Notes under the pieces: model-generated | Database searches by the model: none | What the model saw: only the letters and a program-made list of their open reading frames with translations | What the model was told of the DNA's origin: nothing | Translations under genes and position numbers: made by a program | DNA from: Candidatus Aenigmatarchaeota archaeon | Lineage (GTDB): Archaea; Aenigmatarchaeota; Aenigmatarchaeia; QMZP01; QMZT01 | Reading direction: 5' to 3' | Assembly (NCBI GenBank): GCA_026397315.1 | Contig: JAPLVC010000004.1 | Coordinates: 1 to 64,000, forward strand | Length of the DNA stretch: 64,000 nucleotides | Shown here: piece by piece, positions 17,783 through 53,699 of the stretch | Numbering within the stretch: the first letter of the stretch is position 1 | How the letters are laid out: the number at the start of each line of letters is the position of its first letter

Positions 17783-17832
17783 ATTATTTAAAAAACGCAA
17801 TTATTATTTCTATATTGATATTTCCGGAGAAT

Positions 17833-19815
17833 ATGGAAGTGATATTGATGAAAAATGTAAAATGGGTTGTCGAGGACGAAAAGAGGAAGCATGTTTACTG
17901 GCCTTCAGAACACATGAAAAAGAGGGCATGGGTTTCCGACCATTCCGTCTATCAGGAAGCTGAAAAGGATCCTGTGGCATTTCTTGCGAAAAAGGCGCAT
18001 GAAGGTCTTGACTGGAAAAAGAAATGGAACACGGAATACCATCACGACGAGCACAAGCCTTGGGATTTCAAATGGTTCATCGGGGGAGAGATAAACGCTT
18101 CCTACAACGCGCTGGACAGGCATGTTAAAGCCGGGAAAGCTGACAAGACGGCTTTCATATGGGTGCCAGAGCTGACCGAAGAGGCGCCGAAAAAAATAAC
18201 TTACAAGGAGCTCTATGACGAGGTAAACAAGTTCGCGAACGTGCTGAAAAAGCTCGGCGTCAAGAGAGGCGACAGGGTCGGCATATATCTGCCGATGATA
18301 CCGGAGGTCATAGTTTCAATGATGGCCTGCGCCAGGCTGGGAGCGGTGCACAGCGTCGTATTCTCCGCTTTCAGCGGCGAGTCGCTCAAGGACAGGCTCA
18401 TAGACGCCGACGCTAAAGTTCTGGTAACCGCGGACAGCTGCTACAGGAGAGGAAAGGTCTTGGACCTCAAGAGCAACGCGGACATAGGCGTCGCCGGGAC
18501 GGACGTGGAGCATGTCGTCGTGGTCAAAAGGACGGGCAACGCAATCACTTGGAACGATGCGAAGGACCAGTGGTGGCACGACCTCATGAAGGACGCGGAA
18601 GACTACTGCGAGCCCGAGTTCGTCGAGAGCAACGAGACTCTTTTCATACTTTACACGAGCGGCACGACAGGCAAGCCGAAGGGAATCGTGCACGATACAG
18701 GCGGCTATCTCACGCAGGCCTACTGGACGACTAAATGGAACTTCGACCTGCACGACGACGACATTTTCTGGTGCACGGCGGACATAGGCTGGGTGACAGG
18801 CCACACGTACGGCTGCTACGGCCCGCTGCTGGTAGGGGCGACGATGCTCATGTTCGAGGGAGCGCCGGACTATCCGGATCCGGGGAGATGGTGGAAGACA
18901 GTCGAGGATTATAAAGTGACGGTCTTCTACACCGCGCCGACCGCGATACGCATGTTCATGAAATTCGGAGACGAATGGGTGAAGAAGCACGACCTTGGGA
19001 CGCTGCGGCTGCTCGGCTCGGTAGGCGAGCCCATAAACCACGACGCGTGGATGTGGTATTTCGAAGTCATCGGCGGCGGACGCTGCCCGATAATAGACAC
19101 GTGGTGGCAGACCGAGACCGGCGGGACGCTCATCAACACGCTACCGGGCATCGGACCTTTCATACCCACGGTCTCCGGCCGCGACTTCCCCGGCAAGAAG
19201 CACGTCATCGTCAATGAGGAAGGCCAGGAAGTGAAGCCCGGTGAATCAGGATACCTCATTCAGAAACCGCCGTTCGCTCCAGGCATGTTCAGAGGCATAC
19301 ACAAGGACGAGAAAAAATACATCGAAAATTACTGGACCAGATTCCCCGGTCACTACGACACAAGTGACGGCGCGAGACTCAACGAGGACGACACCATCAG
19401 GATTACGGGAAGAGTCGATGATGTTATGAAGGTCGCAGGCCACAGGCTGTCGACAGGAGAGCTGGAGGACGCCATAAACAAACACCCGCTAGCGCGCGAG
19501 TCGGCGGTTGTTCCGAAGCCCGATAACATAAAGGGCGAGGTGCCGGTCGCCTTCATCATACTCAGGGACCCTTCGAAAGCGTCTGAAGAGCTGAAGAAGG
19601 ATATCGTGAAGCACATAGACAAGACCATAGGCCCGATAGCGAGGCCGTCTGAGATATATTTCGTCCACGACGTGCCCAAGACGAGGTCAGGCAAAATAAT
19701 GAGAAGAATCTTGCGCGCGTTAGTAAGGGGCGACGCTGACGTGGGAAGCACAATAACCCTGATGAACCCGGAGTGCGTCGAGGAGCTTAAGAAGATGGTG
19801 CAGCACCACGGCTAG
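17833..19815 (+). CDS. acs: acetyl-CoA synthetase (AMP-forming)
   Basis: YTSGTTGKPKG AMP-binding motif, WWQTETG, and the C-terminal PKTRSGKIMRR motif. The six-frame ORF extends upstream into the MFS gene, so the start was placed at the Met of MEVILMKNVKW. Confidence 0.9.
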   Translation: MEVILMKNVKWVVEDEKRKHVYWPSEHMKKRAWVSDHSVYQEAEKDPVAFLAKKAHEGLDWKKKWNTEYHHDEHKPWDFKWFIGGEINASYNALDRHVKAGKADKTAFIWVPELTEEAPKKITYKELYDEVNKFANVLKKLGVKRGDRVGIYLPMIPEVIVSMMACARLGAVHSVVFSAFSGESLKDRLIDADAKVLVTADSCYRRGKVLDLKSNADIGVAGTDVEHVVVVKRTGNAITWNDAKDQWWHDLMKDAEDYCEPEFVESNETLFILYTSGTTGKPKGIVHDTGGYLTQAYWTTKWNFDLHDDDIFWCTADIGWVTGHTYGCYGPLLVGATMLMFEGAPDYPDPGRWWKTVEDYKVTVFYTAPTAIRMFMKFGDEWVKKHDLGTLRLLGSVGEPINHDAWMWYFEVIGGGRCPIIDTWWQTETGGTLINTLPGIGPFIPTVSGRDFPGKKHVIVNEEGQEVKPGESGYLIQKPPFAPGMFRGIHKDEKKYIENYWTRFPGHYDTSDGARLNEDDTIRITGRVDDVMKVAGHRLSTGELEDAINKHPLARESAVVPKPDNIKGEVPVAFIILRDPSKASEELKKDIVKHIDKTIGPIARPSEIYFVHDVPKTRSGKIMRRILRALVRGDADVGSTITLMNPECVEELKKMVQHHG

Positions 19816-21519: not shown

Positions 21520-22056
21520 ATGGACAAGATAACCGAGATTCGAATTCATGGAAGGGGAGGCCAGGGAGCGGTCACGACAGCAGAGCTCATGGCGGTCGCC
21601 GCGTTCAAAGACGGCAAGTTCAGCCAGGCCGTGCCCAAGTTCGGACCCGAACGCCGCGGCTCGCCTGTGGAAGCATACTGCAGGCTGGCGAAGGAATTCA
21701 TAACCCTGCGCACGCAGGTCTATGAGCCCGACTATGTGATAGTTCTCGACGAATCGCTAACGCACTCGCTCGACGTGACGACGGGTCTGAGGAAGGGTGG
21801 CGTCATACTCATCAATGCCGAAGGCAAGAAAGGCTTCGGCACATTCCCCACGTACACGGTCGACGCGAACAAGATTGCCATGGAAATTCTGGGCAGGCCG
21901 ATAGTCAACACCATAATGTTGGGAGCTTTCGCGAAGGCCACGAAACTGGTCACGCTGGAGAGCCTGGTAGAGGCGATAGGCGAGAGGTTCAGCGGCCCTG
22001 TAAAGGAAAAGAACATACTGGCGATAAAGCGCGCCTACGAGGAGACGAAAGCATGA
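21520..22056 (+). CDS. porG: pyruvate:ferredoxin oxidoreductase gamma subunit
   Basis: IRIHGRGGQGAVTTAELMAV N-terminus; 178 aa; first gene of a porGDAB cluster. Confidence 0.9.
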   Translation: MDKITEIRIHGRGGQGAVTTAELMAVAAFKDGKFSQAVPKFGPERRGSPVEAYCRLAKEFITLRTQVYEPDYVIVLDESLTHSLDVTTGLRKGGVILINAEGKKGFGTFPTYTVDANKIAMEILGRPIVNTIMLGAFAKATKLVTLESLVEAIGERFSGPVKEKNILAIKRAYEETKA

Positions 22057-22343
22057 CAGCCAAGGAGCATGACTTGAGCAGGGGCACCGTGTGCCCGAGC
22101 ACGAGCAACTCGAAGTCCAAGAAGACGGGCAGCTGGCGCTCCTTCAAGCCCGTTTTACTCAGCGACAAGTGTCGCGGATGCGGAATCTGCGCGCAGTATT
22201 GCCCGGAGGGCTGCATAGAGCTGCACGAAGTCGCCGGCAGCAAAACAAAAGTGGCGAAAGTTGATTATGATTATTGCAAAGGATGTTTGCTCTGCATGAC
22301 CCTTTGCCCGTTCAAGGCGATAGAGAAGAGCACGGAGAAGTAG
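22053..22343 (+). CDS. porD: pyruvate:ferredoxin oxidoreductase delta subunit (2x[4Fe-4S])
   Basis: [12 protein letters not shown] and [12 protein letters not shown] motifs; overlaps the porG stop. Confidence 0.9.
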
Positions 22344-22374: not shown

Positions 22375-23538
22375 TATGACAAAAAAAGTAATGGAAGGAA
22401 GCCACGCGATCGCTGAAGCCGTTAAATTGTGTGAACCGGGTGTAATAGCAGCTTACCCGATTACGCCACAATTATTCAATGAACTTAGCTTTATTGAATA
22501 GTGGATACTCACATAATCGAGCGGCTCTCGGAGATAATCGCGGACGGCGAGATGGACGCGAAATACGTTAACGTCGAGTCCGAGCATTCGGCCATGTCCG
22601 TCTGCCTGGGCGCGCAGGCGACAGGCGTGCGCACGTTCACCGCGTCTTCAAGCCAGGGCCTCGCGCTGATGTACGAGATGTTATATATCGTCTCAGGCAT
22701 GCGCCTTCCGGTCGTTATGGTCAACGCTAACCGCGCGCTTTCCGCGCCGCTTAACATATGGAACGACTGGTCCGACTCTTTCGGAGCCAGGGACTCGGGA
22801 TGGATACAGTTATACTGCGAGAGCGCGCAGGAAGCGCTTGATACGGTGATACAGGCGTACAAAATCGCGGAAGACGCTCGAGTGCGATTGCCCGTCATGG
22901 TCTGCATAGACGGCTTCTTCCTGTCTCATGTTTACGAGCCCGTCGACATACCCGACGCGCAAGCGGTGGGCAAGTTCCTGCCCAAGTTCGCCGGTCCTGT
23001 CATCGACTTTGACAAGCCGGTCAGCCAGGGCATGTGGGCCGGGCCGGAATGCTATCAGGATTTCAAGAAGGAGCAAAATGATGCCATGATCAGGGCGATG
23101 GAAGTCATACACGAGATCAACAAGGAGTTCAAGGAGCAGTTCGGCCGCGGCTACGGCAACGGGTTCATCGAGACGTACAACATGGAGAACGCCAAATACG
23201 CGCTGATAACCATGGGCTCGCTCGCAGGGACGGCGAAGCACGTCATCCGCGAGAACAAGATTCACGACGTCGGCCTCATACGCATCAAGAGCTTCAGGCC
23301 GTTCCCGTTCGCCGAGATAAAGAAGGCCATAAAGGACGTCCATGCCTTGGGTGTTCTGGAAAAGAATCTTTCACCAGGTTTGGGCGGGGCGCTGTGTCAC
23401 GAGGTCCGCGGCATGGTGAAGACGAAGAACGTCAGCTCGTTCATCGGCGGCCTCGGAGGGCGTGACGTCAAGATTGATGATTTCATGAAAATTTTCGATG
23501 ATATCCGCCATGAGAAAAAGGAGCTTGTCTGGGTGTAA
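22375..23538 (+). pseudogene. porA: pyruvate:ferredoxin oxidoreductase alpha subunit, interrupted after codon 41 by a 35-nt palindromic insertion that adds a frameshift and an in-frame stop
   Basis: N-terminal exon [32 protein letters not shown] (22375-22471, frame 2) is followed by inserted sequence up to the TAG at 22497-22499. The rest of PorA (THIIERLSEI...SEHSAMS...) continues from 22507 in frame 1 (GTG at 22501). The insertion 22472-22506 contains the inverted repeat tattcaat/attgaata. Confidence 0.7.
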
Positions 23539-23540
23539 CT

Positions 23541-24452
23541 ATGACGAATGAAACTAAGGCGAAAGGCTGCGAAGGATGCGCATTGTTCTTCCAGGGCGCG
23601 AGCAACTGTTCCGGATGCCCTGAGACAATTGCAGTCCGCACAATCCTCGGCGTCGCCGGCAGGAACACTGTGATAGTCAACGCGACGTCCTGCCTGGAAA
23701 TATTCAGCTCCCAGTATCCCAACACTTCCTGGGGCGTCAATTACATTCACGGAGCTTTCGAGAATACTGCGGCGATTGCTGGCGGCGTGTCGCTAGCCCT
23801 GGAAAAGCAGGGACGCGAAGCGAATGTGATTGCCATCGCGGGCGACGGAGGCACGCTCGACATAGGACTGCAGGCGCTGTCCGGCATGCTGGAGCGCGGA
23901 GAAAAGGTATGTTACATCTGCCTCGACAACGAGGCTTACATGAACACGGGCGTGCAGCGCTCGAGCGCGACGCCTTTCGGTGCGTCGACCACGACCAGCC
24001 CGTCGGGTTCGGTGAAACCCGGCAACCTGACCATGAAAAAATCGATAGTCGACATTGTTGCGGCGCATCACATCCCCTACATAGCGACCGCGACCGTCGG
24101 ACACGTCGACGACCTTAAGGCGAAAGTGGCGAAAGCGCTGAAGAAGGAGAACCAGCCGTCTTTCATCCACGTCCTGAACCCGTGCCCTCTGGGCTGGAGG
24201 TTCGACTCATGGAGAACCGTCGAAATGGCGAGGCTAGCTGTAGATACGGGCATGTGGATACTTTTCGAGAGCGAAAAAGGAAAGATGAAAATAACCAAGG
24301 AAGTCGTCGAGAGGAAACCGGTCGAGGAATATCTCAAGGCTCAAGGACGTTTTTCCCACTTATTTAAACCGGAGAACAATCATATTATAAAAAAGATTCA
24401 GGAGCACATGGACAGCGAATGGGAGCGGACTAACAAAATGTGTTCTGAATGA
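23541..24452 (+). CDS. porB: pyruvate:ferredoxin oxidoreductase beta subunit (TPP-binding)
   Basis: GCPETIAVRTIL, GDGG and LDNEAYMNTG TPP-binding motifs. Confidence 0.9.
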   Translation: MTNETKAKGCEGCALFFQGASNCSGCPETIAVRTILGVAGRNTVIVNATSCLEIFSSQYPNTSWGVNYIHGAFENTAAIAGGVSLALEKQGREANVIAIAGDGGTLDIGLQALSGMLERGEKVCYICLDNEAYMNTGVQRSSATPFGASTTTSPSGSVKPGNLTMKKSIVDIVAAHHIPYIATATVGHVDDLKAKVAKALKKENQPSFIHVLNPCPLGWRFDSWRTVEMARLAVDTGMWILFESEKGKMKITKEVVERKPVEEYLKAQGRFSHLFKPENNHIIKKIQEHMDSEWERTNKMCSE

Positions 24453-33594: not shown

Positions 33595-33862
33595 CGCCGG
33601 GAACAGGATTCGAACCTGTGTGGGCCTGCGAGCGAAAGACGCGCTTTCCGCGTCGTTTACTTTTCGCCCACCGGATCTCCTGAAAGGATTACTGGGGTTG
33701 CTCCTCATATTCCGCCGATCAGAGTCAAGCCATGAAGTCATCGCAAGCGAATGGCATGCTCACGCATGCCGACTGCCCGCTCTTAAGATCCAGTTTTCAA
33801 GTCCGGCGCGTGCGTAGGCCAGCAAAGTTTCCTTTACCGGTTTACCACTCCGCCATCCCGGC
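33595..33862 (-). tRNA. tRNA-Ser(UGA) candidate (type II: 3-bp D stem, long variable arm) with a roughly 120-nt canonical intron at 37/38 and two further putative insertions; CCA not encoded
   Basis: Minus strand reads 5' GCCGGGA-TG-GCGGAGTGGTAAACCGG...CCGGA-CTTGAA | about 120 nt | A-TCCGG-TGGGCGAAA[~36 nt]GCCCA-CACAGG-TTCGAAT-CCTGT-TCCCGGC-G. The acceptor 7/7 pairs perfectly, the T-arm is canonical GGTTCGAATCC, and the anticodon loop is CTTGAAA. Confidence 0.55.
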
Positions 33863-42315: not shown

Positions 42316-45300
42316 GTGAGTCAGATGAATACGAATAAGATGAAGGCATACGTCGGCGCCGTAGGCGCGACGAAACTGACTGCCATAATCGTTATGGCTT
42401 GTATTCTGGGGGTTTTCGCTGTCTCGATGGCTAGCGTTTTTGCCGAATCCAATGCTCAAATCTACACAACGGATATCGAAGGTATAGCGAAATTAGATTT
42501 CACCCCTGATTCAATAGTATATATACACGGCACGAGTTTCTCACCTAACTCGTCAATAAGCATCACCCTCACCAGGCCAGGCCAATATTCATATTCAGAA
42601 TCCTGTGGTCCAGAATATTGCGATATATCGAACATTTTTGGCGGTCCACCTGAAATAGAAACAGGTTTCGACGCACCACAGACCTCGAATGAAGAGGGAG
42701 ATTTCGTTTATAGATATGACTTAGACGGTATAGTCGGAGAATACACAGTCACAGTCACCGATGGCGCAGATGTAAAGACTTTTGTTTTCACCGACGCGAG
42801 AAATATTAACTGGGCCAAATTGAACGGAACAAGTACTGTAACAGTTCTACCCAGCACTAGCATCACAGCTTCTGTGAATGTTACAACAACCAGTACAGAT
42901 CATGACTGGAAATGCACAAAATATAAAATAGAGGGTGGAAGTAACATCACTGTAAATCACGGAAACCATTATGGACAAGGTACATACATAGAATCATTTT
43001 CTATAACAGCACCTGCGACACCTGGCATCTATGATGTCAGTTTTTGGGCCTTTGATGATAATGATTGCACAAGTGGCCAAAGTATTGAAAAGAAATTGGT
43101 AGATGGCATAACAGTCACATCACCTGCTATTTGCGGTAATGGTGTAAAAGAAGGCTCTGAAGGATGCGACGATGGTAACACAGCAAATGGCGATGGTTGT
43201 AATTCCGGTTGTCAAGTAGAAACTGGATGGGCATGCACAGGGACACAGCCGAGTGTTTGCACTCCTGCCTGTGGTAATGGTATTATAACTTCACCTGAAA
43301 CCTGCGACGATGGCAACACGGCCAGTAGTGATGGATGTAGCAATGTTTGTCAGACAGAGAATGGCTGGACGTGCACAGGCACTCCAAGCGTTTGCACTGT
43401 AGCAAACCAGAATCTTACGCAGTCCTGCGGCATAGACATGGCGCTTGTGATAGACGTTTCCGGCAGCATAGACAGCACAGAACTTGCACAGATGAAGACG
43501 GCTCTTAATAGTTTTGTTGACGCATTCCTTCCGAACACACCGACGAAAATAGCTGTCATCAAGTTCGATACGACAGCAACAGTTATTCACGCATACTCAA
43601 ATGATGCCACATCCCTGAAGAACGCCATTAATGGCGCAAGTGGCGGTGGATACACCAACTGGCAGGATGCTCTTCTTGACACCCATTCATTGTATGACCA
43701 CAGGATTGACAAGCCTGATTTGTACGTTTTCGCTTCTGACGGAGAACCGAACAGATACGGCGACCCGGCAGTAAGTGCCACGACACCTGTAGCTGTCGCA
43801 CACGCTGTTACTGAAGCGAACCACATAAAACTTCACGGCATCAGAATAATAACGCTTGGAATAGGAACAGGAGGCAGCTCATCTCTTATAAACAACCTCA
43901 AGGCGATTTCAAGCAATGACGCTTATTACGACACGAATTTCGAAACTATTGCAGATGACCTCGCCGACCTTGCCAACGATTTGTGCGGCGGGACAATAAA
44001 CGTCCAGAAATTCGTTGACGGCAACACCGCTGCCGACTGGCAGTTCGCTGTCACTGGCGGAACTTCGAACCCACCGTCAGGTTACACAGGAACTGACGGC
44101 TTTATCACTTTTGACATAGACACCAGCGGCGGAAATGCGACCGTCAGCGTGACGGAAACAGTACAGAACGGTAATAGTTTCACGAGCGCCCACTGTTATA
44201 GTGATTCGCAGCACCAGAACGAAGTCGGAACACCGGGACAGGGAACAGTGGTCAGCATACAAGTCGGTGCGAACGACGCGATTTACTGCGAGTTCAACAA
44301 CCACCACAACGTTTGCTCTGAATACTCGACAGAAGGCAGCTGCAACGCGCAGACTGGCCTTTGTACATGGTGCCCGCAGTGTAATCAGCATCATCAATGG
44401 AGTAGCCTGCTTGGCGGAGACCAGTGCGTCCCTGCAGGTGCATGCCCGAACCCCTACACATGTGAATACGGGGAATGCGGCGCCGAATGCGAAGATGACG
44501 AAAGACCTTGCACGGCATACTGCGACCAGAGTCTGAATTATTATGGGGCAGGAATTTGCGGAAATGATTGCACCTGCAATTATCCATCACCAACTCCCTG
44601 CGACGATGGTGACAAATGCACGACAGACGGATGTAGTAATGCTAATGGATGCGCACCACATGAACCAGTCGACTGCAACGACAATAATATATGCACGATA
44701 GATTCATGCGACCCATCAGTCGGCTGTTCTAACGTAAGGATACCTACCGAAACTTCTTGCACCGACCAGATAGACAACGATTGCGACGGCAAGACAGACT
44801 GCGCTGACACCGATTGTGCGGGAACTCCTACATGCTTCTACCAGAGACCGTGCGATGCCCCAACCGATATCTGTCAATGGAACAAAGTTCTTCCGCTTGG
44901 CTCAGAGAACTGCTGCGGCTGCAATCTCGGTTTCAATACCTATTGGCCGCTTAACACTCAAGCAAGCGCAGAATGCACTTTCACTGCTGATGCAAACATG
45001 AAACAGAAACTTTACATCTCGGTGAACAACGATGTGATAAGATGCACGCTTAACGGAAACGTAATTTTCGAAAACCAACAGCACGAAGGCTGTGCGGAAA
45101 TAAATCCTAGAAACGGTTATACCGTTCCTATTAGTCCGACTGCCGGTGTAAACACAATAATTTGCGAAATAAATGACAGAGGTTCGATGACGCACTTCGA
45201 TGCATGCGTTGTTGAAAAACAATGTTTTAACAACGCTGATTGTGACAATGGTTTATACTGCGACGGCATTGAATATTGCGATCAAAACAATCAGTGTCAG

Positions 45301-48300
45301 CCAGGAACTCCTGCTGACTGTTCAGACCAATTTTTCTGCACCGTTAATGAAAGATGTGAAGAAGGAACGAGTACATATGAATGTTTATCTGACCCACTTG
45401 ACTGCTCCGGAAACGACATCCAAGGAATAGCGACTTGCACGAACGACCCTGACAACTACGCATGGACTTTTGATTTCAGAAGCCTCTTCACAAGCATCTG
45501 CGATGACGATAACAATGTTTGTACGAGTGGTAGTGAAGACATATCACACACATGCGCAGATGCTAATGCGACCGACGGCGGACCGGTTATTCTGCCTCAG
45601 GGAGGCGTGAGCACATGCACGGCTGAGTGCGATAGCTATGGAACGGAATGCCAGCCGTACCTTAACCCAGCGAATGATTATTGTTATTACAATGGACAAT
45701 GTAACACGAATCCGACAGTATGCCAGTGTGCTTATTCAGGCGTGCCATGCCCGGACCCTGGTTACATAGATGAAAATAGGATCTGCCACTATGGCGAGAG
45801 ATCCTGCACCGCAAACGGATGTGTTTATCGATACAACGACCCAATGGGCTGCAAGGACATCTGCGATCCGGTTTTGGGACCGCAGGACACGACAGGCCCG
45901 ATCACCGACATTCTTAAGATAACGCCGAACCCGACTTGCGGTAAGATAAGCTTCAACGCGACCATAACCGAGAACTGCACCAACATCTCGGACGGACTAT
46001 ATGCGATAGATATTGGGATAGATTTCTGCCCGTTTCCGGGTTACGGAGGCTATCAGGTTCTTCCGCTTGACGACAGCTCATATGATGGAGACAAAATGCA
46101 GGAGCTTGTAGGCAAGATTAACCTGATGCTGACGGGCTACAACGACGGACGCCACACCCTTTACGTCAGGGGCAAGAACACTGACGGCACATGGGGCAAC
46201 TGCGATTCATACGGCTTCGCCTTGGACACTCTGGCGCCCGCGACAGAATCGCAGAGCATAACGCCCAACATGGCGTGCGGCAGCAATCCTTACTTCGTAG
46301 CGAGAATTTGCGACCCATTCAACGAGTCAGGCATGTGCGGCGCGGAATACTACATAGATGATTTCACACAGGGAAACGGCGAAGGAATACCGATGTACCC
46401 GGTCGACGGACAGTGGAACGACGCATGCGAGTACGTTTACGCGTGGGTTGACATAAGCCAGGTTTCTGAAGGGACGCATTACATAAAGGCTCACGGCATT
46501 GACTGCACAGGATGCAACTGGGGCAAAATTGAGAACTTCGCTCCGGTATGGTTCATAAAAGACACTGTAGCTCCGGTATCGACAAAGACTGTCGGAACGC
46601 CGAAGATACAGTGCAGCAGCGACGTGGGAGAGTGCTGGTTCATAACCCAGGGCACTGAGATAACCATGAACGCCCAGGACTCTGATCCGGGCTTCGGCGA
46701 ATACTCAGGAAACCTGAACATATCTTCGCACTACCCGTACTACCAGGGATACGTTAACATTTATTACAGACAGAGATGGAAGGAGAACTACGATTCAGAA
46801 GAGTGGGGAACGTGGAGCAGCTGGACTCTTTACACGGGTCCGTTCAAGTTCACGGAAGACTCACTCCACGAGATAGAGTACTACTCTACGGACGCCTGTG
46901 CCAACAACGAAACATCGAAATTCGAGCTTGACATAGTCGACACTCAGCCACCCGAGACCGCAAAAGACGTCTTGGGCCCGAAAGTCGCAGGCGACGGCAA
47001 CCCGATACACTACTACATAACAGATGACAGCACGATAAAACTTACATGCACAGACCCGCAGCCTCACCCGGTAGACCAGGTCACTCTTAACTGGGCGGTT
47101 TACTACAGTGAGAACTGCACGAACCCGACATGGAGCAGCGAGCCGATAATGAGCGGCCATGAGCAGGGCGGCTACAAGGAGATAACGAACCTTCAGGACT
47201 CGTGCCACAAGATTGTTTACAGCTGCGTCGACGCGCTCAACAACGTTGAAACAGAGCACGTCGAGATAGACGCGGTCGACAACAAGTATCCGCTTGTAGA
47301 AAAGGCGGTAGACGAGCCGAAGGTGCCATACACACTTCCCATCCAATACATGGGCACGGAACCGTTTGATGTGGCAGACCAAGCATGGTATGTCAACCAG
47401 AACACGCTGATAACGCTGACATGCACCGACCAGCTGCCTCATCCGGTCGACGATGTCAAGATATACTACAAATATTATGTGGACGGCGTGCAGCATCAGA
47501 ACTGGACGGAATACACCGCACCATTCACATACAACGAGGACACGTACCACAATCTCTACTACTACTGCGTTGACGCCCTTGGAAACAAGGGACCGACGCA
47601 CGTCGAATTGGACGTGGTTGACACGCAGGCTCCGACCTCGGTGAAAACGCTGACAGGCGCGAAGCACGCATGCACACCTGAAGAGGCGAGCATGTACGGC
47701 ATAGCGGACTGCTCGTTCATAACGCACGACACAAAAGTCGAGCTGTCCTGCACCGACGGCAACCCGCACCCGGTTGATGACGTCGAGCTTCACTACAAGA
47801 TTGAGTGGAAGCTGAACTGGGAAGGCAGCTGGCAGACCCTTAGGGACCAGACAGTAGAAGACAATTACACGAGCTTCTACTACGAGGATCTTCCGGTAGA
47901 ATACCAGGATTCGTTCCACAAGCTCACTTGGTACTGCGTAGATGCGCTTGACAACACGGAGAGCCAGCACGTAGAATTGGACATTGTTGATACACAGGCG
48001 CCGCAGACCGTGAAGACGGTCTCGATGCCGAAATACGCAGGCCCGATAGGCAGCGGCATAGACTACTACATAACCAAGGATACTGTAATCAATCTGACAT
48101 GCACAGACGGCAACCCGCACCCGGTTGACCATGTAACCCTTAACTGGAAAATTTACTGGAGCAGCGAATGCGGACCAAACGCTGTCTGGAGTATAGATCC
48201 GATAGCAAGCGGTGCAGAGGGAGACGGCAACGTTCTGATAACCAACCTCGGCGATTCATGCCACAAGCTTGTCTACAACTGCGTCGACCAGCTCGGCAAC

Positions 48301-51300
48301 GCTGAAAACACACAGGTCGAGATAGACGCGGTCGACAACCAGGCGCCAATCGGAACAAAGAACGTTGGCCAGCCTAACGTGCCCTGCGTCGGCGAAGTAG
48401 AATGCACGCAGTTCGACTACTGGGTTCGTGACCACGTCACGACGGTAACGCTTGACTGCACCGACGCACAGCCGCATCCGATCGGCGGAGAGCTGATGTG
48501 CTACAAGATGGGCTACGACGTCCCAGCGACGCCAGACCTTACACAGCAATATTGCACGCAGTTCGGCGGCAAAATGGAAGCTGACGGATACTGCTGCGTA
48601 GACGTCGATGGCAGCAAGAACTATGTATTCAATTTCACGGAAGATTCCGTGCACACACTGGGTTACTACTGCAAGGACGCATTCGGAAACGCCAACGGCC
48701 TTGACACGGAGACGTTCAAGGTAGACTCGATCGCTCCTAACACAACAAAGACTTATGAGGGACCGTTCTACACCGATGGCAAGTCAGACTGGATAGACAC
48801 CGTATCAACGGTAAAACTTACTGCAACTGATGGCGGAGAGATATGCCACGTAGACGGCACGACCACATACTACGCGGTCACACAGGTGAACGAATCGTTC
48901 TGCTACGATCCGGCAGCGAACTGCCAGCAGATGCACACATACGAGCAAGGCGTCTGGAACACATACACTAGCGCATTCCCGGTCGCTGAGTCATGCCACC
49001 TGATAGAGTTCTACAGCGTGGACGTGCTCGGCAACAAGGAACCGATAAAGCACCAATGCGTGTTCTCAGACCACACAGCTCCAGCCACAAACAAGACTTA
49101 CGGAACACCGCTAGTGGAAGCTGTCACAGGAGGTTATCCGAAGTGGATAACTTCAGCGACACCGATAACCCTTACAGCTGAGGACCAGCTGCCGCACCCG
49201 TCCGGACTGAAAGAAACAAAGTACAGGGTGACGCTTGTGAACGACCTGAACTGCTACGAAGCGTGCAATGCAGAAAGCATCGGCGCATGGAACACCTACA
49301 CGGTGCCGTTCACAATCACGGAAGACTCCTGCCACATGATAGAGTACTTCAGCATAGACAACGTCCAGAAGACCGAGCCGGTCAAGAAGCAGTGCATATT
49401 CGTGGACAACAAGGCGCCGATATCGAACAAGACGTTCGACGGCTTCAACGTCCCGTGCAGCGAACTGACTTGCAGGACTGAAGGCAGCTGTGATTACTAC
49501 ATAAACCAGAACACGAAGATAATACTCAGCTGCACCGACCAGCTCCCGCACCCGGTCGACGACGTCAAGATATACTACAAATACACTGTTGACGATCAGC
49601 CACACGAATCATACTCGGACTGGACGCTATACACTGCTCCAATACAATATAATGAAGATTCGAAACACACTCTCGAATGGTACTGCGAGGACGCCCTTGG
49701 AAACAGGGAGCAGACTCACACCCAGATAGAGAGAGTAGACACAACACCTCCGACGACAGTCAAGACGTTCAGCAAACCGACATACCCTGAAGATTTGAAC
49801 CAGAACGGAACAATAGACAACGAGCAGGAACAGAATTACTGGGTCACTTCGGACACTGCGATAACGCTGACCACGACTGACGGCGGACCAATATGCGCAG
49901 CAGGCTCTTCAAAGCTTTACTACACGGTAAAGTGGGACAAGAACTGCGACGGCGACTTCAATGATTTCGGCGAAGTCGTGATAAATAATCAACACGTGCA
50001 TGTGAACGCAACCACGTGCGAACTCAAGAAGACCTTGTATCTGGAAGGCGAGTGCCTGCATGAGATAAGATGGCATGCAGTCGACGCTCTTGGAAACGTT
50101 GAAACAGAACACGTGCAGCAGCACAAGGTCGACAACAGTCCTCCGCACATACTGATACTTAAGCCGGTCGACGGCTGGTATTCGAAGGGCGAGGACATAC
50201 CCGCGATAGCTGAAGTCAAGGATCTCAACAGTGCGGACAGCCCGTGCGAGCAGTTCAGGAACAACTGCAACGAGCTCGGCGAGAACTGTGCGGTAGGCAT
50301 CGAGGACGGAGCGCAGTGCTACGCCTTCCTTGTGAACCTTGAGTTCCTTAACATGAACCCGATGGAAATATTCGACCTGAGCGACGTGACGAGATATAAT
50401 CTCGAAACGAACGGAACGCTCCTTTACAATGCGGCAGCGCAGGAATGCCAGGGCTATGCAGTAATCCCCGAGAACAGCGACGTGCAGAGCGGCATCCACA
50501 TATTCGTCGTCGAAGCTGAAGACAGCCTCGGCAACTACGCCAACAGCATCGACGAGATAAGGCTTGCGATAGACCAGGCATGCGGCGGCGGCTGCTGGAG
50601 CAGCGACCCGTACGACCTGTGCGAGCCACAGTGCGTTGAGGACGTCCTTCAGGACATAATAACGACATGGAACCTGCCGAAGATAGGCATAGACACGAAC
50701 GCACCGGAAGTTGTGATAACGGCACCGGTTGACACAGAGGGCTATTACGTTGACAAGGGACAGCTTGCTGTCTCGGCTGACGTGACCGAGTCCGGCATAA
50801 CGTGCGCGATAACTTCAGGCACGCCGTGCTACGTGAAAATCGACGGGACATCAATCGGAACTCTGTACTATGATAATAACGAGAAGGAATGCACTGGTAC
50901 GCTTGTGGTGCCCGAGGATGTGCCTAACGGCATGGAAGTTCCATTGACAGTCGAAGTCTCCGACAACTGCGGCAACATCGGAAAGGGAGTGGTTTATGTC
51001 ACGGTTGACACCATGAACCCGGCACCGGTGATACTTGCAGCGGAGGACGTCGAGAACCCGCCATACGACACTGATGGCAACTACGACCTTGTATGGACTG
51101 GCGGAACCGACACGAACTTCAAACAATTCGATATAGTAATAGATGGCACGACCTACTACGACGTGACGCAGCCTTACGAAGGCCTTTCGGCCGAGGGCAG
51201 GCACACGTACAAGGTCATCGCTACCGACGAAGTCGACAAGATTGCAACTTCCAACGAAGTGGTAGTCTGGGTCGACACTGTAGCACCTGGACTGGACGTG

Positions 51301-52425
51301 ACGGGAAGCACACCCAACATGGGATTCTTCCTGTTCACATACACCGCGATTGATCCAAACCCGAGCTCCGGCATGCAGCCGCTTCAGGTGATTGGCGGTT
51401 TCGGAGGCATCTGCTCGAACACGCTTCCGGCAGGCTTCTGCATGGTCGCAGGCACGAATGATGCAATACTTAAAGCATGCGACAACGCGGGCAACTGCGT
51501 CAGCCACTCGACTGAAGGCACTGAAACCGACGTGACCCCGCCTTCGATAATCTACTCGAGCCCGAGCGGCAAGATAGAGCAGAACGAAGAGCTTAAACTG
51601 GAAGTAACGACAAACGAGCCGGCATACTGCTATTACGGCACGGAAGACAACTGGGCCACGATGACACAGATGAGCACATCTGTAAACATAGACCATTCGA
51701 TTGACCTTCCAAGCCCGCTTGCAGACGGCCTTTATGTCTACCACGTCCAGTGCAGGGACTTCGCAGGCAACATAATGGACAGCTCGAAAACGATAGTGTT
51801 CTACGTGAACACTGACGGCCAGTACTGCTACAGCACGGACATGACTGCAGGATGGAACACGTTCTTCCTGCCACAGCTGATACTGGACGACATCAACTTC
51901 AACTGCGGCTATGAGCCGTACGAGACAGCTGATGTACTGGGCTCGCTTGAAGGCAAGTACAGCATAGTGTGGTACTACGATGAGAGCGAAGGGTGGCTGT
52001 TCTACACGCCACAATATCCGGAGTTCTCGACACTGACGCAGTTCAGCGACCAGACAAGCAATCCATACTACATAAAGATGACCGGGCCGGCAAAGCTCGG
52101 ACTCCAGTGCGAGGATGAATGTGTCAGCAACTACTGCGGTGATGGCCAAGTCAACGGCGACGAGCAGTGCGAACTTCCTGACGATAATAACAACGAATAC
52201 TGCACCCAGACGACGCAGCAATGCTACCAAGATACTCACAAGACGCAATACAGGGACGCATACGGCTACTGTGATGAATCGTGCGGCTGCATGGAAGATC
52301 AGGAGTGGGGATCGCCCCAGTGCTTAAAGGACAGCTGCGGAGCGACGTGTGGCGGCGACAGCGACTGCTCGCAAGGACAATACTGCAACACAGAAATTTG
52401 CCAGTGTATGAACATACCTGATTAG
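42316..52425 (+). CDS. giant secreted/surface protein (3369 aa). It has an N-terminal signal/anchor helix, two Cys-rich repeats (CGNG..EGCDDGN..DGC), a VWA domain with MIDAS motif, a Cys/Asp-rich block, about 12 tandem modules of roughly 130 aa, and a Cys-rich C-terminus
   Basis: A single uninterrupted ORF preceded by GGTGAGGTGA. VWA motif is LVIDVSGSID...TNWQDAL. The repeated module consensus is VDTQAP..VKT...C...I..DT.I.L.CTDG.PHPVD.V...YK......Y..PF.Y.EDS.H.L.YYCVDALGN.E..HVELD. Confidence 0.85.
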   Translation: MSQMNTNKMKAYVGAVGATKLTAIIVMACILGVFAVSMASVFAESNAQIYTTDIEGIAKLDFTPDSIVYIHGTSFSPNSSISITLTRPGQYSYSESCGPEYCDISNIFGGPPEIETGFDAPQTSNEEGDFVYRYDLDGIVGEYTVTVTDGADVKTFVFTDARNINWAKLNGTSTVTVLPSTSITASVNVTTTSTDHDWKCTKYKIEGGSNITVNHGNHYGQGTYIESFSITAPATPGIYDVSFWAFDDNDCTSGQSIEKKLVDGITVTSPAICGNGVKEGSEGCDDGNTANGDGCNSGCQVETGWACTGTQPSVCTPACGNGIITSPETCDDGNTASSDGCSNVCQTENGWTCTGTPSVCTVANQNLTQSCGIDMALVIDVSGSIDSTELAQMKTALNSFVDAFLPNTPTKIAVIKFDTTATVIHAYSNDATSLKNAINGASGGGYTNWQDALLDTHSLYDHRIDKPDLYVFASDGEPNRYGDPAVSATTPVAVAHAVTEANHIKLHGIRIITLGIGTGGSSSLINNLKAISSNDAYYDTNFETIADDLADLANDLCGGTINVQKFVDGNTAADWQFAVTGGTSNPPSGYTGTDGFITFDIDTSGGNATVSVTETVQNGNSFTSAHCYSDSQHQNEVGTPGQGTVVSIQVGANDAIYCEFNNHHNVCSEYSTEGSCNAQTGLCTWCPQCNQHHQWSSLLGGDQCVPAGACPNPYTCEYGECGAECEDDERPCTAYCDQSLNYYGAGICGNDCTCNYPSPTPCDDGDKCTTDGCSNANGCAPHEPVDCNDNNICTIDSCDPSVGCSNVRIPTETSCTDQIDNDCDGKTDCADTDCAGTPTCFYQRPCDAPTDICQWNKVLPLGSENCCGCNLGFNTYWPLNTQASAECTFTADANMKQKLYISVNNDVIRCTLNGNVIFENQQHEGCAEINPRNGYTVPISPTAGVNTIICEINDRGSMTHFDACVVEKQCFNNADCDNGLYCDGIEYCDQNNQCQPGTPADCSDQFFCTVNERCEEGTSTYECLSDPLDCSGNDIQGIATCTNDPDNYAWTFDFRSLFTSICDDDNNVCTSGSEDISHTCADANATDGGPVILPQGGVSTCTAECDSYGTECQPYLNPANDYCYYNGQCNTNPTVCQCAYSGVPCPDPGYIDENRICHYGERSCTANGCVYRYNDPMGCKDICDPVLGPQDTTGPITDILKITPNPTCGKISFNATITENCTNISDGLYAIDIGIDFCPFPGYGGYQVLPLDDSSYDGDKMQELVGKINLMLTGYNDGRHTLYVRGKNTDGTWGNCDSYGFALDTLAPATESQSITPNMACGSNPYFVARICDPFNESGMCGAEYYIDDFTQGNGEGIPMYPVDGQWNDACEYVYAWVDISQVSEGTHYIKAHGIDCTGCNWGKIENFAPVWFIKDTVAPVSTKTVGTPKIQCSSDVGECWFITQGTEITMNAQDSDPGFGEYSGNLNISSHYPYYQGYVNIYYRQRWKENYDSEEWGTWSSWTLYTGPFKFTEDSLHEIEYYSTDACANNETSKFELDIVDTQPPETAKDVLGPKVAGDGNPIHYYITDDSTIKLTCTDPQPHPVDQVTLNWAVYYSENCTNPTWSSEPIMSGHEQGGYKEITNLQDSCHKIVYSCVDALNNVETEHVEIDAVDNKYPLVEKAVDEPKVPYTLPIQYMGTEPFDVADQAWYVNQNTLITLTCTDQLPHPVDDVKIYYKYYVDGVQHQNWTEYTAPFTYNEDTYHNLYYYCVDALGNKGPTHVELDVVDTQAPTSVKTLTGAKHACTPEEASMYGIADCSFITHDTKVELSCTDGNPHPVDDVELHYKIEWKLNWEGSWQTLRDQTVEDNYTSFYYEDLPVEYQDSFHKLTWYCVDALDNTESQHVELDIVDTQAPQTVKTVSMPKYAGPIGSGIDYYITKDTVINLTCTDGNPHPVDHVTLNWKIYWSSECGPNAVWSIDPIASGAEGDGNVLITNLGDSCHKLVYNCVDQLGNAENTQVEIDAVDNQAPIGTKNVGQPNVPCVGEVECTQFDYWVRDHVTTVTLDCTDAQPHPIGGELMCYKMGYDVPATPDLTQQYCTQFGGKMEADGYCCVDVDGSKNYVFNFTEDSVHTLGYYCKDAFGNANGLDTETFKVDSIAPNTTKTYEGPFYTDGKSDWIDTVSTVKLTATDGGEICHVDGTTTYYAVTQVNESFCYDPAANCQQMHTYEQGVWNTYTSAFPVAESCHLIEFYSVDVLGNKEPIKHQCVFSDHTAPATNKTYGTPLVEAVTGGYPKWITSATPITLTAEDQLPHPSGLKETKYRVTLVNDLNCYEACNAESIGAWNTYTVPFTITEDSCHMIEYFSIDNVQKTEPVKKQCIFVDNKAPISNKTFDGFNVPCSELTCRTEGSCDYYINQNTKIILSCTDQLPHPVDDVKIYYKYTVDDQPHESYSDWTLYTAPIQYNEDSKHTLEWYCEDALGNREQTHTQIERVDTTPPTTVKTFSKPTYPEDLNQNGTIDNEQEQNYWVTSDTAITLTTTDGGPICAAGSSKLYYTVKWDKNCDGDFNDFGEVVINNQHVHVNATTCELKKTLYLEGECLHEIRWHAVDALGNVETEHVQQHKVDNSPPHILILKPVDGWYSKGEDIPAIAEVKDLNSADSPCEQFRNNCNELGENCAVGIEDGAQCYAFLVNLEFLNMNPMEIFDLSDVTRYNLETNGTLLYNAAAQECQGYAVIPENSDVQSGIHIFVVEAEDSLGNYANSIDEIRLAIDQACGGGCWSSDPYDLCEPQCVEDVLQDIITTWNLPKIGIDTNAPEVVITAPVDTEGYYVDKGQLAVSADVTESGITCAITSGTPCYVKIDGTSIGTLYYDNNEKECTGTLVVPEDVPNGMEVPLTVEVSDNCGNIGKGVVYVTVDTMNPAPVILAAEDVENPPYDTDGNYDLVWTGGTDTNFKQFDIVIDGTTYYDVTQPYEGLSAEGRHTYKVIATDEVDKIATSNEVVVWVDTVAPGLDVTGSTPNMGFFLFTYTAIDPNPSSGMQPLQVIGGFGGICSNTLPAGFCMVAGTNDAILKACDNAGNCVSHSTEGTETDVTPPSIIYSSPSGKIEQNEELKLEVTTNEPAYCYYGTEDNWATMTQMSTSVNIDHSIDLPSPLADGLYVYHVQCRDFAGNIMDSSKTIVFYVNTDGQYCYSTDMTAGWNTFFLPQLILDDINFNCGYEPYETADVLGSLEGKYSIVWYYDESEGWLFYTPQYPEFSTLTQFSDQTSNPYYIKMTGPAKLGLQCEDECVSNYCGDGQVNGDEQCELPDDNNNEYCTQTTQQCYQDTHKTQYRDAYGYCDESCGCMEDQEWGSPQCLKDSCGATCGGDSDCSQGQYCNTEICQCMNIPD
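46228..50160 (+). repeat. in-frame tandem array of about 12 divergent modules of roughly 330-390 nt each within the giant gene (protein-level repeats)
   Basis: Module starts recognisable at about 46228, 46561, 46940, 47275, 47614, 47983, 48328, 48721, 49066, 49404, 49738 and 50130 (V-D-[TN]-x-[AP]-P motif). Confidence 0.6.
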
Positions 52426-52526: not shown

Positions 52527-53699
52527 ATGAAAAATAACTTCGCATTATCCGGAATCGTTTTTGTATCTTTGATTTTTGTTTTAGCCCAGTCCGCTTACGC
52601 CACCAGTTTTCCATGCGCTTTCGGCGGAACAGTCACAGTCAACGGTAATCCGATTGCCGGAGAACAGGTTACAGCATATCTGAACGGAACTGGAGTGCTT
52701 GTGGGCGAAGGCAAAAACACGAGCGCCGGATATGGCATCTCGATAGTCGATGCCAGCGACCAGTATGTCTTTTTCAAAGTCATGGGCACGCTTGCCAATG
52801 AAGGTTTGCAAAACTGCGTTGAAGGAACTTTCACACAGCTTAACCTTACGGTGGATGACGGTGATAACGATGGCTACAATGTTCTTGAAGATTGCAACGA
52901 CTCGAATGCGGCTGTGAACCCAGGCGCGGCCGAGATTTGCAACGGCATAGATGACAATTGTAATGGTGTTATTGACGAAGGTTTCAGCGACCTCAACACT
53001 TCATGTACTGTAGGCATAGGAGGCTGCGCGAGAACCGGAGTCAAGATATGTTCTGCTGACAAGCTTTCAGTTGTCTGCAGCGTCACTGCTGGAGCACCGA
53101 GCTACGAAGCATGCGGTGACGGCATAGACAACGACTGCAACGGCCTCACCGACGAGATCTGCGGCGGCGGTGGCGGCGGTGGAGGCGGTGGCGGCTCAAG
53201 CGCTTACTGTGGCGACGGCAATCTCCAGAAATACAGGGGCGAAGAGTGCGAGCTGAACATCGCATGCAACGGCACGGGCCTGACATGCAACCTTACAAGC
53301 TGCAAGTGCGTCGAATGCACCGAGAGCTGGGCATGCGGAGAGTGGGGACAGTGCGCTGGCGGCGTTCAGACGAGGACTTGCGTCGACGCGAACACGTGCG
53401 GCACGGTCCTGCAGAAACCATCCGAGAGCCAGACCTGCACCGGAAGCGGCAGCAGCGGCACCCAGATAACGAATCTTGGCGCGATAGTGTGCGGCAACGG
53501 CGTGTGCAACGACGGCGAAACATGCGAGAACTGCCCGGCGGACTGCCAGTGCGCTGGAGCGAACGCGCAGGAAAATCAGGGCTTCAACATATTAGGCGTA
53601 TTCACCGGAGCGCCCGGCTTGAGCCTGCTTGGCCTGCTTGCGCTGGCAATAATCATAGCGATTCTGTTCTTCACGACGCGCAAGAAGAAAAAGAAGTAA
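52527..53699 (+). CDS. secreted Cys-rich surface protein with MopE-like putative metal-binding repeats, a poly-Gly linker and a PGF-CTERM-like C-terminal anchor
   Basis: Signal peptide ends at AQSAYA; DCNDSNAAVNPGAAEICNGIDDNCNGVIDEG and CGDGIDNDCNGLTDE motifs; GGGGGGGGGGGSS linker; C-terminus GAPGLSLLGLLALAIIIAILFFTTRKKKKK. Confidence 0.7.
   Translation: MKNNFALSGIVFVSLIFVLAQSAYATSFPCAFGGTVTVNGNPIAGEQVTAYLNGTGVLVGEGKNTSAGYGISIVDASDQYVFFKVMGTLANEGLQNCVEGTFTQLNLTVDDGDNDGYNVLEDCNDSNAAVNPGAAEICNGIDDNCNGVIDEGFSDLNTSCTVGIGGCARTGVKICSADKLSVVCSVTAGAPSYEACGDGIDNDCNGLTDEICGGGGGGGGGGGSSAYCGDGNLQKYRGEECELNIACNGTGLTCNLTSCKCVECTESWACGEWGQCAGGVQTRTCVDANTCGTVLQKPSESQTCTGSGSSGTQITNLGAIVCGNGVCNDGETCENCPADCQCAGANAQENQGFNILGVFTGAPGLSLLGLLALAIIIAILFFTTRKKKKK

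Follow-up and report, generated by a model that had tools for sequence, protein, structure and literature searches.

The present analysis concerns porA, the gene for the alpha chain of pyruvate:ferredoxin oxidoreductase (POR), in a 64,000-nt stretch of DNA from a Candidatus Aenigmatarchaeota archaeon (GenBank assembly GCA_026397315.1, contig JAPLVC010000004.1, positions 1 to 64,000 of the forward strand; hereafter the window). The gene is interrupted between the codons for Gln32 and Thr33 by exactly 35 nt, and these very probably constitute an archaeal intron of the bulge-helix-bulge (BHB) type, in its relaxed HBh' form, lying within a coding sequence. In the mechanism that we propose, the exon bases CCAC of the porGDAB transcript would pair with GUGG in the intron to form a central 4-bp helix (H), the tRNA-splicing endonuclease EndA would cut at both sites (AA|U and AU|A), and the RNA ligase RtcB would join the exons and probably circularise the 35-mer. 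The ribosome would then read an uninterrupted ...AYPITPQTHIIERL... PorA of 375 amino acids (aa), and on unspliced mRNA translation would end at the intron's in-frame stop codon. We infer the action of EndA and RtcB on porA mRNA; to our knowledge, EndA and an RtcB-type ligase are universal in Archaea.

The first-pass annotation of this DNA had placed the N-terminus of PorA and its remainder in separate frames with 35 nt (22472-22506) between them, and both a re-reading of the frames and a tblastn search with the joined PorA agree, residues 1-32 mapping to 22376-22471 and residues 33-375 to 22507-23535. Past the last codon of exon 1 (caa), frame 0 reads LFNELSFIE and then meets TAG (22499-22501). 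When the insert is removed, the open reading frame (ORF) encodes 375 aa with the junction peptide ...AYPITPQTHIIER, can be aligned with the solved PFOR alpha chain 9bt4_B with no gap at the junction (E = 5.4e-104; VISAYPITPQTHIVEDLSQ), and aligns also with full-length relatives. The inverted repeat and TAG that had been described inside the 35 nt are both present (tattcaat at 22473-80 and attgaata at 22493-500, spaced by 12 nt), and as RNA the stem extends to 11 bp. A search for further copies of the 35-mer, which the first-pass annotation had called for, was run within the 64-kb window and returned a single copy with up to 3 mismatches allowed. The insert is not bordered by a target-site duplication (direct repeat). 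An Rfam scan of the window gave no match, including none to a group I or group II ribozyme core; a self-splicing intron of either group was rejected, as its core needs hundreds of nucleotides and the porA inserts span just 20-35 nt.

The best matches of PorA are to Candidatus Aenigmarchaeota (DPANN), and a Pfam scan of the window ORFs gives an archaeal context (RNase P Pop5 and p30, S6e, NurA, OapC). Among the matches listed, 15 of 120 PorA relatives are N-terminally shortened to about 334-352 aa, a hint that the same break occurs there. DNA of the relatives was collected from genome and metagenome collections and via exact protein look-up, and an insert was found at exactly Q32|T33 in 19 distinct porA sequences, the window and 18 others, at 57-95% protein identity to the window (set drawn from the window and loci L001, L003, L013, L017, L080, L082, L084, L086, L097, L098, L150, and L160 through L167, with duplicates removed). 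The inserts measure 20, 28, 29, 30, 31, or 35 nt, lengths that leave remainders of 0, 1, and 2 on division by three, and all 19 contain a stop codon in the exon-1 frame, even those of 20 nt and those with lengths divisible by three. With lengths in every class modulo three and a stop in frame in each, the inserts could all be accommodated only by their removal from the RNA. The universal stop may reflect chance in AT-rich sequence, or selection that keeps unspliced mRNA from yielding an aberrant PorA.

This recurrence bears directly on whether the interruption is an artefact of assembly or sequencing, a possibility that the first-pass annotation had raised, or of chimeric reads; nothing but the oddity of the insert itself recommends such an origin. 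The same 35 nt were found in the independent Logan assembly of SRR20698647 (L168), near-identical variants of the 35-mer with substitutions in the loop occur in L001 and L080, and unrelated inserts occupy the identical codon boundary across many samples and assemblers; an artefact is thereby refuted, and we assign it a vanishingly small probability. The same annotation had considered a recent inactivation, in which porA would be a pseudogene and POR would have been lost in the lineage, as a frame break with an in-frame stop might suggest. The remainder of the porGDAB operon had been described as intact, and the porG, porD, and porB ORFs are indeed unbroken. Codon changes in exon 1 are predominantly synonymous (20 synonymous versus 2 non-synonymous in L161; 16 versus 2 in L084) and indicate that exon 1 is under purifying selection among the insert-bearing relatives; both exons are, as judged from such comparisons, under purifying selection in all insert-bearing lineages. 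GGAGG, a strong ribosome-binding site, is retained ahead of the exon-1 ATG in L160 and L161, and the insert persists across PorA lineages only about 57-60% identical to the window protein. Recent inactivation does not survive these observations, and a pseudogene is extremely unlikely.

A third option was that the ribosome gets past the insert, hopping over it as in phage T4 gene 60, shifting frame, or reading through. In gene 60, a hairpin and a stop codon lie within a brief non-coding gap, and bypass needs matched take-off and landing codons. The porA interruption is similar in being a gap in an essential gene, with a stop codon inside and a stable hairpin that directly follows the last sense codon, but the matched codons are absent: the take-off codon is CAA or CAG, and the codon before exon 2 is GAU, GUC, GAG, GGC, or GAC. 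No single frameshift would fit insert lengths in all three classes, and in the window the stretch shared by the frame-0 and exon-2 frames is only about 4 nt long. Read-through of the 30-nt inserts would add 10 residues within the invariant YPITPQTH motif, and the CCAC/GUGG pairing, with its covariation from A-U to G-C, would have no role in a bypass. We thus consider recoding of this kind highly improbable. The first-pass annotation had spoken of a small structured insertion that is bypassed or edited; the small structured insertion that the cell gets around has held up, but bypass or editing is disfavoured by the lack of matching take-off and landing codons and by the spread of insert lengths, and the evidence favours RNA splicing.

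Splicing of the porA transcript is further supported by the geometry of the insert. The two cuts needed to give YPITPQ|THI lie exactly 2 nt beyond the 3' ends of the respective strands of the 4-bp helix H, and the 5' splice site is a clean 3-nt bulge (AAU) flanked by H and the inner helix h'. In archaeal pre-tRNA, the intron pairs with positions 32-35 over 4 bp, and cleavage follows position 37 (PMC4090602); the position of the porA cut, 2 nt after H, matches this 37/38 rule. The cut falls 2 nt after the H strand at both sites in 19 of 19 sequences. Hairpin sequences are unrelated between clades, and an unconstrained fold still returns the pattern ((((...(hairpin))))) for nearly all of them; within clades the intron is inherited with small changes, the members of the 35-nt family differing in the loop and by compensatory changes in the stem. 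The nucleotide-exact match of the cut sites to the protein-defined junction, together with its recurrence in 18 other sequences, is far beyond chance.

Covariation was assessed on a length-normalised alignment of the exon flanks, the outer six h' pairs, and H, with the loop masked. The proposed pairs were formed in 91.1% of cells, compared with 26-47% when the 3' partner columns were slid by 1-3, and the covariation score was 0.511 against 0.167 +/- 0.022 in shuffles, none of 500 of which reached it. All six of the h' pairs tested change on both sides, and RNAalifold on the raw, un-normalised sequences recovered the same six pairs, every one with compensatory changes. Helix H is paired in 96% of cells across the 19 sequences; at its third pair, 15 sequences have A-U and 4 have G-C, the change of the Pro codon from CCA to CCG in the exon accompanying a change from GUGG to GCGG or GCAG in the intron.

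These features also separate splicing from a split gene, in which PorA would be made in two pieces, an N-terminal peptide of 41 aa and a protein of 345 aa translated anew from GTG 22501, that assemble with no RNA splicing. The window and most relatives do have an in-frame GTG 6 nt ahead of exon 2, and gene callers do predict the 345-aa product. However, GTG 22501 is simply the first three bases of the 3' strand of H, GUGG; L097 and L098/L099, which carry GCAG or GCGG at this place, have no start codon in the exon-2 frame after the last stop, and L164 and L165 lack the GTG at -6 and offer only a non-conserved ATG at -27 and a GTG at -21. The missing starts in these loci mean that the split-gene model fails as a general explanation, and it would leave unexplained both the geometry of helix, bulge, and hairpin with its covariation and the placement of the break exactly between Q and T of the invariant YPITPQTH motif. 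It is very unlikely, if slightly less so than the preceding alternatives.

Several observations weigh against interpretation of the insert as a BHB intron. Splicing of porA is here a prediction from DNA sequence, and neither EndA nor RtcB was among the roughly 50 ORFs of the window covered by the Pfam scan. The 3' splice site lies in an internal loop (9 nt versus 2 nt), closed in the fold by the exon-exon pairing CGAUUA/UAAUCG, rather than in a strict 3-nt bulge, and for this reason the motif is, as modelled, of the relaxed HBh' form and not the strict hBHBh' form. Three lineages (L097, L164, L165) have a C.A mismatch at the second pair of H. The outer exon-exon helix h is paired in 83% of cases in insert-bearing genes and in 77.5% in 103 insert-free homologues, bacterial ones included; with no sign of selection on this helix, cleavage would need an endonuclease tolerant of relaxed motifs. 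Lastly, a motif with a stem of at least 11 bp is expected 0.4 times per shuffled 64-kb window on both strands, so that the structure in itself is unremarkable, and with a fold z-score of only -1.5 the hairpin alone proves nothing.

Helix h had been a candidate line of evidence for the motif and was dropped, as the insert-free homologues pair almost as well; its pairing follows from the conservation of the Pro-Ile-Thr and Ile-Ile/Val-Glu codons and does not count towards the structure. In most PorA genes, the Pro-Ile-Thr codons ahead of the junction can pair with the Ile-Ile/Val-Glu codons after it, and a pre-existing exon-exon helix of this sort may have made the site permissive for the fixation of a BHB intron. 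Generic scans of the window for other HBh' motifs gave many weak matches at chance level, which were rejected. No second coding-sequence intron emerged from these window scans, porA being the only place where such a motif joins two ORF halves with a long stem, and no other visibly split gene was seen in the Pfam scan of the window's ORFs. Coordinates of the features are collected in Table 1; the Pfam assignments for porG, porD, and porB were taken from the identical Logan contig L168.

Table 1. Features of the porA operon, the putative porA intron, and the tRNA-Ser gene in the 64,000-nt window
Feature	Position	Strand	Description
porG	21520-22056	+	intact, upstream in porA operon; Pfam POR/Fer4 assignments for porG and porD on contig L168
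porD	22053-22343	+	intact, upstream in porA operon
porA exon 1	22376..22471	+	32 codons, ATG 22376, MTKK...AYPITPQ, last codon caa 22469-22471
possible outer exon-exon helix h	22458..22519	+	CGAUUA 22458-63 / UAAUCG 22514-19, present in minimum free energy (MFE) fold
H helix, 5' strand	22466..22469	+	exon CCAC = Pro CCA + first base of Gln CAA; pairs with 22501-22504
5' bulge AA|U	22470..22472	+	unpaired in MFE fold and most relatives; predicted 5' splice site 22471|22472
putative BHB-type (HBh') intron, 35 nt	22472..22506	+	ttattcaatgaacttagctttattgaatagtggat, 26% G+C, in-frame TAG 22499-22501
inner helix h'	22473..22500	+	11-bp stem 22473-83 / 22490-500, one G-U; 6-nt loop CUUAGC 22484-89
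H helix, 3' strand	22501..22504	+	intron GUGG
3' splice-site trinucleotide AU|A	22505..22507	+	predicted cut 22506|22507
porA exon 2	22507..23538	+	THIIERL... from act 22507, +2 frame, stop codon 23536-23538
porB	23541-24452	+	intact; TPP_enzyme_C on L168
tRNA-Ser(UGA) gene	33595..33862	-	268 nt, three BHB introns
tRNA-Ser intron 1	33842-33812	-	31 nt, D-loop, H = GUGG/CUAC
tRNA-Ser intron 2	33795-33677	-	119 nt, position 37/38, H = CUUG/CAGG
tRNA-Ser intron 3	33661-33626	-	36 nt, variable arm, H = GCGA/UCGC

A tRNA-Ser gene with three introns lies in the same window, in a stretch where no other gene was seen, and in all three introns a 4-bp H helix is found with the cut sites 2 nt past its strands. 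Without its introns the tRNA measures 82 nt, is called tRNA-Ser(tga) by ARAGORN with a normal cloverleaf and the variable arm GGGC-GAAA-GCCC, and has a canonical acceptor stem, D-loop, anticodon stem, and T-arm. The intron borders were set by BHB geometry, ARAGORN on enumerated deletions being too permissive. ARAGORN and Rfam both miss the unspliced gene, and run over the window and 38 related loci they returned nothing. Two of the three introns occupy non-canonical positions, which means that the organism must splice BHB introns at such positions, and the intron of the D-loop resembles that of porA in that no outer helix lies directly beside the 3' site. The tRNA-Ser introns support the splicing mechanism proposed for porA, and indirectly the presence and use of EndA and an RtcB-type ligase in the host, although they are not a direct test of the mechanism.

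The distribution of the porA insert among relatives is patchy down to closely related genes. Insert-bearing and insert-free genes are interleaved in a neighbour-joining tree of PorA, and L002, L081, and L085 have no insert although they lie inside the 35-nt clade. Between L006 (3001-4110, no insert) and L097 (2001-3138, 28 nt) the DNA is about 88% identical and the absence is exact at the predicted junction; further present/absent pairs are L002/L003, L081/L082, L007/L013, and L004/L162. The simplest reading of this pattern is that an old intron would have undergone repeated exact losses; as an alternative to repeated loss, there may have been repeated gain at one favoured site in porA. Patchiness among close relatives, a terminal inverted repeat, and AT-richness are also what a small mobile DNA element (of the kind of a miniature inverted-repeat transposable element) targeting the porA site would display, but the lack of a second copy in the 64 kb and of a target-site duplication argues against such an element, and the inserts of different clades share not a sequence but an RNA geometry that includes exon bases. 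This explanation, too, is scarcely credible.

More speculatively, and in a reading that is unlikely, the porA intron might not be just a passenger that the gene tolerates but either a conserved control point that gates POR synthesis or a DNA-mobile BHB intron that re-invades one pre-adapted site. Under the first version, production of POR would depend on how active the tRNA-splicing machinery is, or on the folding of HBh' on the nascent, translated mRNA, with the universal in-frame stop acting as a safety device; under the second, BHB introns of Aenigmarchaeota would move as DNA, and the site would be pre-adapted in that the Pro-Ile-Thr and Ile-Ile-Glu codons already pair. Either version would explain the exact presence and absence of the insert between close genomes.

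The operons of some relatives are rearranged (L162-L166), and despite this the intron is kept at the same codon boundary. In L164-L166, porD and porA are separated by a CutA1 gene, and L163 has a cut CutA1 gene upstream. L162 and L163 carry, immediately ahead of porA, a minus-strand gene of 406-408 aa with no Pfam match; a large, ORF-containing intron in these two loci was considered and rejected, the 406-aa minus-strand ORF being a neighbouring gene and exon 1 adjoining the insert of 30-31 nt. In L162 (2526-4035; GCA_974432145.1, CDDBCN010000003.1), the porB beside the intron-bearing porA encodes 666 aa and has Pfam matches to Intein_splicing and, faintly, to LAGLIDADG_3. On these matches, the L162 operon seems to carry RNA-level and protein-level intervening sequences together.

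The closest known counterpart is the intron of cbf5 pre-mRNA in Crenarchaeota (Watanabe 2002; Yoshinari 2006; Yokobori 2009, PMC2738675), which is likewise a short coding-sequence intron with a relaxed BHB and a patchy distribution, with gain or loss among related species; its removal by EndA has been tied to enzymes of broad substrate range (PMC2738675). In the searchable literature, the mRNA substrates of the archaeal endonuclease are this cbf5 coding intron of some Crenarchaeota and an intron in the 5' untranslated region of Haloferax HVO_1309 (PMC2738675, PMC7714728, PMC10485636), and one review considers that more mRNA BHB introns are likely to be found. We found no report of an intron in porA or in an Aenigmarchaeota mRNA in that literature, which omits most subscription journals. 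The two host genes differ in function and lineage, cbf5 encoding an RNA pseudouridine synthase in Crenarchaeota and porA a subunit of a central-metabolism oxidoreductase in DPANN Aenigmarchaeota, and their introns are unrelated; moreover, cbf5 splicing has been shown experimentally, whereas that of porA is deduced from sequence. The putative porA intron would act in the manner of the cbf5 intron, without being homologous to it, and stands outside the cbf5 family.

The HVO_1309 transcript of Haloferax volcanii (Schwarz 2020, PMC7714728; PMC10485636) shares with porA the status of an mRNA substrate beyond tRNA and rRNA, but its intron lies in an untranslated leader and leaves the reading frame uninterrupted, whereas porA needs nucleotide-exact removal to yield its protein. 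The non-canonical tRNA introns of the hBH and HBh' classes (Marck & Grosjean 2003), found in Thermoproteales, ARMAN, and other DPANN (PMC4090602, PMC5829648), resemble the porA insert in their 4-bp H helix, in cuts at +2 nt, and in that one flanking helix may be weak. The porA intron differs from them in that its host is a polycistronic mRNA and the exon part of its motif is constrained by Pro-Gln codons rather than by tRNA structure. In the unconventional splicing of HAC1 and XBP1 mRNA in eukaryotes, Ire1 together with a tRNA ligase or RtcB removes a short mRNA intron, and the reading frame changes. The ligase of metazoa is of the RtcB type (PMC8718801). These systems are akin to the porA proposal as protein-only cutting and ligation around a short mRNA intron; in contrast to it, Ire1 recognises stem-loops and the process is stress-regulated, and no homology of the introns is implied.

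As a spliced gene, porA would be the second, independent archaeal coding-gene family with a tRNA-type intron after cbf5 in the searchable literature, and would extend such introns to another superphylum (DPANN) and to core energy metabolism. Its roughly ten diverged intron versions, with exact presence and absence down to genes that are 88% identical, provide a series in which gain, retention, and loss can be followed. The Aenigmarchaeota endonuclease is predicted to tolerate relaxed motifs in RNA other than tRNA. In many Aenigmarchaeota metagenome-assembled genomes, gene callers annotate PorA as a shortened protein of 345 aa or as a pseudogene, and because of this mis-annotation metabolic reconstructions may wrongly score POR as defective.

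Elsewhere in the window, an AT-rich inverted repeat with BHB-like spacing (ATAT, tg|a, 8-bp G-U-rich stem, ATAT, tg|) lies at 17812-17847 (+) and ends directly before the ATG of an acetyl-CoA synthetase gene. Chance alone should produce several motifs this strong per window, so the repeat probably represents a terminator or operator rather than an intron. Further downstream, 42316-52425 (+) forms a single ORF of 3369 aa and is followed at 52527-53699 (+) by a 390-aa protein with MopE-type metal-binding repeats; both are presumably giant surface proteins of a kind common in DPANN archaea.

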